Origin: Escherichia phage ID2 Moscow/ID/2001
Length of the DNA stretch: 5,486 nt
Strand: one strand, 5' to 3'
Sequence record: NC_007817.1
In this document: positions 4 through 5,486 of the stretch, in pieces
Position numbering within the stretch: position 1 is the stretch's first letter
Layout: each line of letters opens with the position of its first letter
Made by a program: the position numbers and the translations under genes
The notes under the pieces: model-generated
Database searches by the model: none
The model's input: only the letters and a program-made list of their open reading frames with translations
What the model was told of the DNA's origin: nothing

Positions 4-33
4 TTGACATAACCATAACTACATATCTATCAT
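4..33 (+). promoter_or_regulatory. Candidate sigma70 promoter P_A for gene A
   Basis: Perfect -35 TTGACA at 4-9, 18-nt spacer, -10-like TATCAT at 28-33. Predicted TSS near 40, upstream of the GGAGG SD (48-52) and ATG 62. Confidence 0.35.
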
Positions 34-61
34 GCCTCCAAATCATCGGAGGCTTTCTTAC

Positions 62-1723
62 ATGCAACAAGCTAGTGACTTCTACAACAAACCACATATC
101 GACGCTATCAAACCACTCGTTGAAACCGCTGGTATGTCTGTGCTTTCTCAATCTCCAAACCTCCGTATCTGGAAACAGGTAAATTCCCGTATCAAACTAT
201 TGGAAGAAATCCTTGCTCATTACACCAATGGCATCCGCCGTGATGACAACGGCGACTTCTGGATGAATCCCAATTCTCAACTCGCAACCACAATTGCCTA
301 TCGTGCCCATCAAAAAGGACACAACCCAAAACTCATTCAATACCCTGATACATTCACTCTGGATGACATCATCCGTAAAAAGCCATTACCACAAAACGCT
401 CCTGACGAATTAAAACTCTCCGATGAAATCGGGGAAGACTATCGCCTTACAATCATCTCTCTAATCGAAGAAATGCAAGAAATCTACGACGTGCTCGGAC
501 AACTTGATATTAATAACACTATAGACCACAAACCTATCGGTAACGCCCACTGGAATCTACTCTATGAAAAACCTGTATATAAACACTGGTATGAACTGGT
601 ATCAAAACGACCCCTTAAATCAATCAGAGACGACTACAACTATGCAAAGGCTAAGGGTATTAAGGATGAATGCTCGAAAATCCTTGAGGAATCCACCATG
701 AAATCACGTAGAGGCTTTACCGTACAAAGACTAATGAATGCTATGCGCACTGCCCACACTGAGGGCTGGTACGTTGTATTCGATACTCTTACTCTCGCCG
801 ATGACCGCCTTAAGGATTTCTATGATAATCCCAATGCTCTCCGTGACTATTTCCGTGATATTGGTCGTATGGTTCTCACTGCCGAGGGTCGTTCTGTCCA
901 TGATTCATCTTCGGACTGCTATCAGTATTTTTGTGTGCCTGAGTATGGCACCCAGCACGGCCGTTTACATTTTCACGCAGTGCACCTTATGCGCACACTT
1001 CCTCTGGGTTCTATCGACCCTAACTTTGGCAAGCTGGTGCGTACTAATCGGCAAATAAATAGCTTGCAAAATACATGGCCCTATGGTTACTCTATGCCCA
1101 TCGCGGTCCGGTACTCCCAAGACGCATTTTCGCGCGCTGGCTGGCTCTGGCCCGTTGATACAAAGGGCGAACCTCTTAAAGCTACCTCGTATATGGCTGT
1201 CGGCTTCTACGTCGCTAAATACGTTAACAAAAAATCAGATATTGACATGGCCTCTAAAGGTCTAGGGAATAAAGAATGGAACAATTCACTCAAAACCAAA
1301 ATCAACCTGCTGCCCAAGAAAATTTTTCGCATCAGGATGTCTCGCAACTTCGGAATGAAGCTGCACACAATGAGTCACCTCTCAGCGGAAACTCTAATCC
1401 AACTGACCCAAGTGGGCTACGACGTGACCCCGTTCAACAACATCTTGAAGCAGAACGCCAAGAAAGAGCTACGATTGAGGCTGGCAAAGAAATCTGTCGC
1501 CGACGTTTTGGAGGCGCAACCTGTGACGACCAATCTGCTAAAATTCATGCGCAATTTGACCCGTCAAATCGGAGTGTCCAACCTGCAGAGTTTTATCGCT
1601 TCAATGACAACGAAATTAACAAGTATGGATATTTCTGATGAAACCAAAAACTACGTTGATACTGCAGGAATTACTGCTACTCACTTACGAATTAAATCGA
1701 AGTGGACTGCTGGTGGAAAATGA
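62..1723 (+). CDS. A: Replication initiation protein A (HUH rolling-circle endonuclease). Start at ATG 62 preferred; the longest ORF begins at ATG 32.
   Basis: ORF 32..1723 (563 aa). It carries the HUH motif HFHAV (H at 968-970 and 974-976) and the catalytic tyrosine pair in YVAKYVNK (Y codons 1208-1210 and 1220-1222), both as in phiX174 gpA from memory. The C-terminal ~340 aa align closely with phiX174 A. ATG 62 has a GGAGG Shine-Dalgarno at 48-52 with 9-nt spacing; ATG 32 has no recognisable SD. Confidence 0.85.
500..529 (+). other. Viral (+) strand origin of rolling-circle replication, conserved 30-nt gpA recognition/nick site
   Basis: CAACTTGATATTAATAACACTATAGACCAC at 500-529 is, from memory, identical to the phiX174 30-nt origin. 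The expected gpA nick is between G506 and A507. It lies inside gene A, as in phiX174. Confidence 0.85.
698..1723 (+). CDS. A*: A* protein, in-frame internal initiation within gene A
   Basis: In-frame ATG at 698 begins MKSRRGF, the same residues that begin phiX174 A* as I recall it. GAGGA SD at 686-690 with 7-nt spacing. Product 341 aa, sharing the A stop. Confidence 0.6.
1276..1638 (+). CDS. B: Internal scaffolding protein B, overprinted inside gene A in another frame
   Basis: 120-aa ORF, the same length as phiX174 B. Shares the conserved C-terminal block [10 protein letters not shown]...QPAEFYRF...GYF with phiX174 B from memory. AGGGA SD at 1264-1268, 7 nt upstream of the ATG. Confidence 0.9.
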
Positions 1724-2545: not shown

Positions 2546-3829
2546 ATGTCTAACGTTCAAACTTCCGCTGACCGCATTCCTAACGACCTTTCTCACCTCG
2601 TCTTCGAGGCTGGTAAAATCGGCCGTTTAAAAACTATCTCCTGGACTCCAGTTGTCGCTGGCGACTCATTTGAAACTGAGATGGTAGGCGCTATTCGCCT
2701 TTCTCCACTCCGTCGCGGCCTTGCCGTCGACTCTCGCGTGGATATCTTCTCTTTCTATATTCCGCATCGTCATATCTATGGTCAAGAATTCATTGAATTC
2801 ATGAAAGCTGGCGTTAATGCCACTCCTCTCGCACCTGTTACTACTGCCTCTGGCTGGGATGCTTCTGCCTATCTTGGCACTATTCCATCCTCAAACCTCA
2901 AGGTTCCTAAATTCTTACATCAAGGATACCTTAATATTTACAACAACTACTTTAAGCCACCGTGGGATGCTGACCTTACATACGCTAACCCATCTAACAT
3001 GCCTGAACAGGATTATAAATGGGGCGTTCGTGTCGCTAACTTAAAATCTATCTGGACCGCCCCCTTACCTCCTAACTCTAAAACATCAGAGACTATGACC
3101 ACTGGCGCTACGTCTATTGATATTATGGGCCTGCAAGCTGCTTATGCTAAATTGCACACCCAACAAGAACGTGACTACTTCATGACTCGCTATCGCGATA
3201 TTATGAAAGACTTCGGAGGTCACACCTCCTATGACGGTGATAACCGTCCTCTGCTGCTTATGCGCTCTGAATTTTGGGCCTCTGGCTATGACGTCGACGG
3301 TACTGACCAATCCTCTTTAGGTCAGTTCTCCGGTCGCGTCCAACAAACATTCAATCACAAAGTACCTCGCTTCTATGTACCTGAACACGGCGTCATTATG
3401 ACTCTCGCCGTTACTCGCTTCCCTCCTACTCATGAAATGGAGATGCACTATCTTGTCGGTAAAGAATCTTTAACCTATACCGACCTCGCCTGCGACCCTG
3501 CTCTTATGGCTAACCTGCCTCCGCGCGAAGTATCCCTTAAGGAATTCTTCCACTCCTCGCCGGACTCCGCTAAGTTCAAAATTGCCGAGGGCCAATGGTA
3601 TCGCACGCAGCCTGACCGCGTCGCATTCCCTTATAACGCACTTGACGGCTTTCCTTTCTACTCTGCTCTGCCGTCTACTGACTTAAAACAACGTGTCCTA
3701 GTTAACACTGATAACTACGACGAAATCTTTCAGTCTATGCAACTCGCACACTGGAATATGCAAACTAAATTTAATACTACCGTCTATAGACATATGCCTA
3801 CGACTCGTGATTCAATCATGACGTCATAA
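2546..3829 (+). CDS. F: Major capsid protein F
   Basis: 427-aa ORF, the same length as phiX174 F. The N-terminus MSNVQTSADRIPNDLSHLVFEAGKIGRLKTISWTPVVAGDSFE matches G4/phiX F from memory. AAGGA SD at 2535-2539 with 6-nt spacing. Confidence 0.95.
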   Translation: MSNVQTSADRIPNDLSHLVFEAGKIGRLKTISWTPVVAGDSFETEMVGAIRLSPLRRGLAVDSRVDIFSFYIPHRHIYGQEFIEFMKAGVNATPLAPVTTASGWDASAYLGTIPSSNLKVPKFLHQGYLNIYNNYFKPPWDADLTYANPSNMPEQDYKWGVRVANLKSIWTAPLPPNSKTSETMTTGATSIDIMGLQAAYAKLHTQQERDYFMTRYRDIMKDFGGHTSYDGDNRPLLLMRSEFWASGYDVDGTDQSSLGQFSGRVQQTFNHKVPRFYVPEHGVIMTLAVTRFPPTHEMEMHYLVGKESLTYTDLACDPALMANLPPREVSLKEFFHSSPDSAKFKIAEGQWYRTQPDRVAFPYNALDGFPFYSALPSTDLKQRVLVNTDNYDEIFQSMQLAHWNMQTKFNTTVYRHMPTTRDSIMTS

Positions 3830-3840
3830 AGCCTATAACG

Positions 3841-3878
3841 TGACAGGGGGAAAAATTTTAATTTTTCGCCCCCTGTCA
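3841..3878 (+). repeat. Extended inverted repeat/hairpin in the F-G intergenic spacer; candidate complementary-strand origin and/or T_F terminator
   Basis: TGACAGGGGG (3841-3850) is the perfect reverse complement of CCCCCTGTCA (3869-3878). The 18-nt AT-rich interior (AAAAATTTTAATTTTTCG) can itself pair AAAAATT with AATTTTT. It is the only long perfect stem in the window and sits in the 99-nt F-G spacer. Confidence 0.6.
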
Positions 3879-3928
3879 GGTTGAACAAGCGCAAGCGCGT
3901 TAGCTGCCTAACTTAAAAGGAAATTCAA

Positions 3929-4468
3929 ATGTTTCAGAAATTCATCAAAAAACATAACGCTCCGTTAACTTCTCAGCCCGCTATCTCTAAGGCTGTTACT
4001 CCATCTATGACCGCCGCCCCTCTTGTCACTACACCTCTCGGCGTGTCTTCTACTCAATTATTCTTGGAACTTACAACCACTGCCGCCGCTGGCGGCTTCG
4101 CTTACGCTATCCGCGTAGACAATTCTAACCCTACTGATAATCAGGTCTTCTCCGTCTGTGCTCACATCACATCTGACGTGGACCCTAAATATATTGCGTG
4201 CCTCGTTCGCTTTGAGGTCACTGCTGGTACCACTCCTACCGCTATGCCTCCTGTCTATGATGCTTACCCTATCGCTGGTTACTATGACGCTGGCTCTTAT
4301 ACTGTTGAAGACTGCGCTACTATTCCTACTCACGCTGTCTCTTCTGGCAACGATGTATATGTCGGCCTTATGCTTTTCTCTCGCATGTGGCCCGTTGCAA
4401 AACTATCCGGTATCGCTTCCCTTAATCAGGTAAACAAGGAAGTAACCGTTCTCCAACCTCTTAAATAA
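3929..4468 (+). CDS. G: Major spike protein G
   Basis: 179-aa ORF in the canonical position after F (phiX174 G is about 175 aa). AAGGA SD at 3917-3921 with 7-nt spacing. Ser/Thr/Ala-rich composition typical of the beta-barrel spike protein. Confidence 0.9.
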
Positions 4469-4478
4469 GGTATTCTCT

Positions 4479-5486
4479 ATGTTTGGTGCAATCGCTGGCG
4501 GTATCGCCTCATCTCTTGCTGGCGGACTCATCAACAAAGCCTTTGGGGGCGGTCAATCCGCCTCCTCTACTGGCGTTCAAGGTGATGTCCTCGCTTCTGA
4601 CAATAACGTAATCGGTGCTAATGATGCTGGTATCAAATCCGCTATTCAAGGCTCTAATCCACCCAATGGCCAACAAGCTGCTCCCAATGCTATTTCGGGC
4701 GTTCTCGCTGACACTGGCAAAGACGCCCTATCTTCAATCACTGGCGCTGGCGTTAATAAACTTATGGAAAAAATCGGACTATCTAAAACTGCTGCTGATA
4801 AAGGCAAGGACACAAAGGATTATCTTGCTTCTGCATTCCCCGACCTCAACCCGTGGGAACGTGCTGGCGCTGGTGCTTCGTCTGCTGGCATGGTTGACGC
4901 TGGCTTCCAAAACCAAAAAGAATTAACCCGCATGCAGCTTGACAATCAAAAAGAAATCGCTAAGATGCAAAACGACACACAAAAGGATATCGCTGGTATC
5001 CAATCTGTCACATCCCGGCAAAATACTAAGGATGCTGTCTATGCTCAAAACGAGATGCTCGAATATAACCAAAAAGAATCTATGTCACGCGTTGGCTCTA
5101 TTCTCGAAAACACAAGCCTCACCAAACAACAACAAACTTCTGAAATTATGCGGCAGATGCTTACTCAAGCTCAAACCGCAGGTCAACATTTTACAAATGA
5201 CCAAATCAAAGAACTTACACGAAAAGTTGGTGCTGATATTGATTCTGTCCGCGCTAACACTGACCGTACACATGTAGAAACTCAACGCTCAAAACAGGAA
5301 GTTCAAAACTCTCGTTATGCTTCCTCACAAGTCGGTAAAACCGCTAAGGATGTCTCTAATGCAGTTACTGATACAGCTAGTTCTATTGTTGATTATTTTC
5401 GTGGTATTGATAACAAAGTGGCAGACGCTTATAACAACTATTTCAAAGATGGTAAATCCGACGGAATCGGGTCGAACATCAAATAA
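4479..5486 (+). CDS. H: Minor spike / DNA pilot protein H
   Basis: 335-aa ORF (phiX174 H is about 328 aa). Gly-rich hydrophobic N-terminus [25 protein letters not shown] followed by a long Gln/Lys-rich, coiled-coil-like region. TAAGG SD at 4466-4470 overlaps the G stop. The ORF stops on the last base of the window. Confidence 0.9.

Follow-up and report, generated by a model that had tools for sequence, protein, structure and literature searches.

The first lines of this sequence raise the question of which of two in-frame ATG codons, at position 32 or at position 62, starts gene A, and of what the bases around them do. The window, i.e., the whole stretch of DNA analysed here, is the 5,486-base genome of Escherichia phage ID2 Moscow/ID/2001 (NC_007817.1), a complete circular microvirus whose genes run in the order A, A*, B, K, C, D, E, J, F, G, H. 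The circle is linearised directly behind the gene H stop codon (TAA, 5484–5486), so that positions 1–61 constitute the H–A intergenic region. The DNA is 97.7% identical to that of the Enterobacteria phages FL76 and FL68, the best match in the phage collection, and 96.2% identical to that of ID204 across the aligned 91% of the genome; by its sequence, ID2 is placed among the G4-like microviruses (Bullavirinae, Gequatrovirus talmos). All features described below lie on the + strand.

The start codon of gene A

The longest open reading frame runs from ATG 32 to position 1723 and encodes 563 aa, with no stop codon between ATG 32 and ATG 62, while the shorter form (62–1723) encodes 553 aa plus the stop codon. 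The codon at 62–64 is preceded by GGAGG at 48–52 and nine intervening bases (53–61), an arrangement on which the first-pass annotation had in part based its choice of ATG 62. The motif GGAGG occurs three times on the + strand of the genome, and the computed pairing of the region ahead of ATG 62 with the 16S rRNA 3′ end (anti-Shine–Dalgarno) amounts to −9.5 kcal/mol, and no other of the 11 gene starts pairs as strongly. At the upstream ATG (32–34), the corresponding value is +1.9 kcal/mol, and the 21 nt examined in front of it contain no G, bearing out the earlier statement that this codon lacks a Shine–Dalgarno (SD) sequence.

The protein data point the same way. The 553-aa product, the form that had been predicted from ATG 62, has the same sequence as the gpA deposited for ID2 Moscow/ID/2001 itself (YP_512368.1, AAZ48948.1), for FL76 (AGS81874.1) and for FL68, and 553-aa members are also encoded on two independently assembled Logan contigs, whereas the 563-aa product of 32–1720 is absent from a collection of ~15 billion proteins. 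Gene A is annotated at 62–1723 in FL76 and ID204. More widely, gene A is annotated as starting at the ATG behind the hairpin described below in WA14, G4, ID12, ID8, ID52, FL76 and ID204, and likewise in Lilledu, lillemer, PJNS002, phiX174 and alpha3; G4 is the phage with which the first-pass annotation had proposed to compare the N-terminus. Judged by the annotation of relatives and by protein identity, gpA, the replication initiator of 553 aa, begins at ATG 62, a conserved start that the public annotation also uses. This start is already on public record and the module in front of it has already been described in phiX174; the deposited gene A annotations are correct, and the current understanding is unchanged. 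Choosing the longest ORF, on the other hand, would make gene A 10 codons too long in ID2, and 9 or 10 codons too long in phiX174, G4 and WA14-type phages.

Promoter pA and the T_H-type hairpin

A sigma-70 promoter, pA, was read from the sequence and recovered by a consensus scan, with a −35 element TTGACA at 4–9 and a −10 element TATCAT at 28–33, separated by an 18-nt spacer; both hexamers lie where the first-pass annotation had placed them. Its 11/12 match is the best in the ID2 genome and the sole site at that level on either strand. In 1000 dinucleotide-preserving shuffles, the + strand held on average 0.045 sites of 11/12 per genome, or ~5e-4 for one given 61-nt stretch. The pentamer TTGAC is present in all aligned G4-like and phiX174-like relatives as well as in alpha3, with none found in the distant L010, and the −10 pattern TAnnAT is kept in the relatives. 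In phiX174, a saturation mutagenesis study found the −35 element at 3927–3932 and the −10 element TTTCAT at 3950–3955 to be mutation-sensitive (10.64898/2026.07.25.740675). The phiX174 record J02482 (Sanger) puts the transcription start at 3962, on the A that opens the loop and 7 nt past the −10 element. This start maps to A40 of ID2, again the first loop base and 7 nt past the −10 element, and pA of ID2 is thus predicted by homology to start at position 40, in line with the earlier estimate of a start near 40. A literature search with the phiX174 start sequence (AAATCTTGG/AAAUCUUGG) gave 360 matches, the best 10 of which were unrelated, and one for G4 promoters and terminators gave nothing specific.

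Between the promoter and ATG 62 lies a hairpin that had gone unnoticed in the first-pass annotation. Its 5′ arm GCCTCC (34–39), recovered by the consensus scan, by folding and by RNAalifold, pairs with the 3′ arm GGAGGC (48–53) across an 8-nt loop (AAATCATC, 40–47); the hairpin is followed by the T-rich tract TTTCTT (54–59), which is at once the terminator tail and part of the spacer from the SD to ATG 62. The −10 element ends at 33 and the stem begins at 34, so the two abut directly. The stem has 6 bp, five of which are GC pairs, was scored as terminator-like by the consensus scan, and folds with an energy of −12.1 kcal/mol (z = −3.07 vs. shuffles). ID2 therefore carries both hallmarks of an intrinsic terminator, i.e., a GC-rich hairpin and a U-rich tract. 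No match to Rfam 15 at the gathering score was obtained anywhere in the ID2 genome.

In the alpha3 clade, the arms read GCCCTC and GAGGGC, which means that two of the six pairs are changed on both sides (UA to CG and CG to UA), and the locus L113 holds a U–G intermediate between this stem and the GCCTCC/GGAGGC stem. RNAalifold independently predicts the identical six pairs. Among the relatives, the loops range from 6 to 13 nt and are free to vary in sequence, with the arms fixed. The compensatory arm changes and the variable loops indicate that the hairpin itself is under selection and that the SD is not the sole target. Since GGAGG at 48–52 is the gene A SD and at the same time part of the 3′ arm, the hairpin explains the SD as well as the spurious ATG 32, which is composed of the final two bases of the −10 element (AT) and the G with which the stem opens.

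The same order of a −10 element, a 6-bp stem, a T-rich tail and an ATG was found in ID2-like phages, in WA14/ID18, in G4/ID12/ID8/ID52, in the Lilledu type (Lilledu, lillemer, SECphi17, PJNS002 and L048), and in phiX174, the alpha3-like phages and L010 (from IMG/VR, 52% identity). A close known counterpart is the pA–T_H element of phiX174 (nt 3927–3983), whose intergenic region reads TTGACA, 17 nt, TTTCAT, GCCTCC AAATCTT GGAGGC TTTTTT ATG. ID2 shares with it a −35 element near the H stop codon, 17–18 nt to the −10 element, the abutment of promoter and stem, an RBS in the 3′ stem, and a T tract followed by the ATG. The order of the elements is the same, both arms are identical, the loop starts with AAATC in both phages, and an in-frame upstream ATG is formed at the −10/stem junction in both. 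They differ in that the ID2 −10 element TATCAT is nearer to consensus than TTTCAT, the spacer has 18 nt in ID2 against 17 nt in phiX174 and lacks a TATG extension in ID2, the loop has 8 nt against 7 nt, TTTCTTAC takes the place of the TTTTTT tail, and SD and ATG lie 9 nt apart against 7 nt. The functional measurements come from phiX174. The pA–T_H–RBS module is common to all three Bullavirinae genera, with compensatory stem changes, and this shared module makes the phiX174 results transferable to the G4-like phages used in experimental evolution.

In phiX174, the terminator stem begins immediately at the end of the promoter (Logel and Jaschke, 10.1101/2020.03.05.979765). RNA-seq in the same study gave a 0.29-fold net transcriptional current across pA–T_H, i.e., read-through of T_H occurs. 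In the saturation mutagenesis study, the gene A RBS (GGAGG, 3969–3973) in the 3′ stem of T_H was mutation-sensitive, and most single substitutions in the 5′ stem were tolerated (10.64898/2026.07.25.740675); the tolerant 5′ stem suggests that the hairpin contributes only modestly to fitness under laboratory conditions. Outside the phages, the promoter-coupled intrinsic terminators of bacterial chromosomes are described as similar: where two transcription units adjoin, the signals that start one and end the other share or lie within a few bases (Fletcher et al., 10.64898/2026.08.19.745784). A point of difference is that, in ID2, the 3′ arm of the terminator also provides the SD for the gene that follows.

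These features suggest a mechanism. By homology with phiX174, pA would fire at A40, inside the hairpin loop, and yield a 22-nt leader. Transcripts starting at A40 would contain neither ATG 32 nor the 5′ arm, so that the terminator could not form on them, and the pairing of the SD would be far weaker than within the hairpin. Folding of the transcript from position 40 left a weak alternative structure, with a whole-transcript MFE of −5.7 kcal/mol and a mean unpaired probability of 0.16 for the SD, which pairs weakly with downstream bases. As the SD is still mostly paired on the predicted pA transcript, its unmasking would be relative rather than absolute. Late transcripts coming from gene H, by the same homology, would carry the entire hairpin and mostly terminate at the T tract, and on the rare read-through RNA the SD would be locked in the −12 kcal/mol stem (computed unpaired probability 0.0), leaving gene A poorly translated. 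The first-pass annotation had argued that promoter, SD and start codon agree with one another only for ATG 62. The layout on which this argument was built holds, but the promoter alone does not exclude ATG 32, because upstream read-through transcripts that carry ATG 32 must exist; it is the comparative data and the missing SD that exclude it. Taken as a whole, the explanation in which positions 1–64 form an H–A control module (promoter, hairpin, SD and ATG 62) that is homologous to the phiX174 pA–T_H element and drives the replication gene A, with ATG 32 as an incidental codon where the −10 box meets the stem, is given a probability of about 0.88. The presence and layout of the module are taken from sequence and comparison, and the firing of pA and the termination from homology.

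The in-frame upstream ATG

One feature of the junction codon calls for separate consideration. Wherever the junction holds an ATG (phiX174, G4, ID2/WA14 and L048), this ATG is in frame with gene A, although the lengths of loop and tail differ: 7 + 6 in phiX174, 8 + 5 in G4, 8 + 8 in ID2/WA14 and 9 + 6 in L048, where the ATG lies one base further 5′. The resulting distances from the upstream ATG to the A start are 27 nt (phiX174), 27 nt (G4), 30 nt (ID2/WA14) and 30 nt (L048). The Lilledu-type phages without a junction ATG have tails of 6 or 7 nt and do not preserve the phase. The comparison covered positions 32–64 of ID2 and their counterparts in L011, L012, L003, L048, L016 and L118–L120, and the pattern comes from about four partly dependent lineages, too few independent ones to judge it. 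It may be due to chance; it could also mean that an upstream ORF in another frame is avoided, or that ATG 32 is used on rare occasions on read-through RNA.

It is conceivable, if unlikely, that selection keeps the junction ATG in frame, either for a minor 563-aa gpA or against a harmful out-of-frame ORF, and more broadly that the GGAGGC arm has a dual role. If this were true, late transcripts would carry GGAGGC as a terminator arm that also masks the SD, pA transcripts would carry it as a free SD, and the synthesis of gpA would be limited to pA mRNA. A more specific and decidedly improbable proposal is that both starts are used, ATG 62 on pA transcripts and ATG 32 at a low level on upstream read-through RNA, which would give a minor gpA with 10 additional residues. 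The incomplete termination at T_H of phiX174, where the 0.29-fold net current is not zero (10.1101/2020.03.05.979765), speaks for it; the upstream ATG is in frame in 4/4 lineages that have one, with loop and tail lengths compensating for each other, and the lineages lacking it do not hold the distance to a multiple of three. But ATG 32 has no SD and adjoins a stable hairpin, the N-terminal extension is not conserved as a peptide, several lineages lack the upstream ATG, and chance or the avoidance of an out-of-frame upstream ORF would fit about four partly dependent lineages as well.

Similar evidence bears on the longest-ORF reading, in which gene A begins at ATG 32 and gpA is a 563-aa protein beginning MPPNHRRLSY. 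This reading draws on the frame, unbroken up to ATG 62, and on the equivalent in-frame ATG in phiX174, G4, WA14/ID18 and L048, and is nonetheless very improbable. Besides the unfavourable anti-SD pairing of ATG 32 and the deposition of gpA in the 553-aa form only, the G of this codon opens a −12 kcal/mol stem, and the codon lies upstream of the pA start predicted by homology. The Lilledu-type phages, the alpha3-like phages and L010 retain the downstream ATG, but at the junction they carry ATA (Lilledu type), ATT (alpha3) and ATC (L010) in place of an ATG; L010 has a TGA just ahead of this codon, and lillemer and SECphi17 have an in-frame TAA inside the loop. Moreover, phiX174 and G4 do not read the bases between the two ATG codons in the same phase. 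GGAGGC falls as GGA GGC in one of phiX174 (7-nt loop) and the G4-like phages (8-nt loop) and as CGG AGG in the other, which argues that the nucleotides, and not a peptide, are conserved. ATG 32 is accordingly judged to be an in-frame upstream ATG but not a start.

Finally, the idea that TTGACA/TATCAT is a non-working promoter and that gpA is made only from late-transcript read-through is barely credible, since, although the net transcriptional current drops over phiX174 pA–T_H (10.1101/2020.03.05.979765) and the spacer is just 15 nt in WA14/ID18, the genome holds no second match at the level of pA, a level far beyond chance, both hexamers are conserved across genera, mutations in the phiX174 −35 and −10 elements are detrimental (10.64898/2026.07.25.740675) and a start is annotated at 3962, and the SD is fully paired on the read-through RNA.

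Relatives and further observations

The set of relatives was assembled from several sources. A protein-based search of IMG/VR yielded 6 relatives, and a pattern search of the same collection returned mostly unrelated terminators on large contigs. A metagenome scan found 70 loci, nearly all of which are copies of the phiX174 spike-in, with new diversity coming from L048, L100 and L113–L115 only. Vibrio phage PG19 was left out of the comparison because its layout upstream of gene A differs. Among the matches, contig FUFK010037421.1 (L049–L117; 327,964 bp) consists of ~60 tandem phiX174 genomes with a period of 5386 bp and arose as an artefact when the sequencing spike-in was assembled. Positions 3162–4667 of MZ417522.1 (Mycolicibacterium phage J1, 24,953 bp) hold a phiX174-type gene A whose identity to the query is the same as that of phiX174 itself, and the deposited assembly is likely contaminated by spike-in DNA. 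A further match was to a Protaetiibacter phage record.

Two further strong promoter-like sites were noted in the ID2 genome. TTGACT-18-TATTAT (1907–1936) lies 35 nt upstream of gene D, at the position that pD occupies, within gene C, in phiX174, and TTGACA-16-TAAGAT (4939–4966) lies within gene H and has no known counterpart. In WA14 (L003) and ID18 (L007), only 15 nt separate TTGACT from TAACAT, compared with 18 nt in their close relatives L100 and L031, and this 3-nt deletion probably weakens pA in the two phages.

A 70-codon open frame spans the H/A junction in ID2 and FL76 (5457–5486 plus 1–179, + strand, third frame); as it is closed in G4 and WA14, it is probably not a gene. A conserved ORF across this junction was also considered as the cause of the multiples-of-three pattern and was rejected on the same ground.

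In alpha3 (L013, X60322), the module of promoter, hairpin, T tract and ATG is present twice, at 1–68 and at 697–761. The copy behind the H stop codon has TTGACA at 4–9, a hairpin GACTC..GAGTC with GGAG in its 3′ arm, a T6 tract and an ATG at 66, and it precedes an unannotated small ORF, while the second copy precedes gene A at 759. This arrangement suggests that the 758-nt insert between genes H and A of alpha3 arose together with a duplication of the module.
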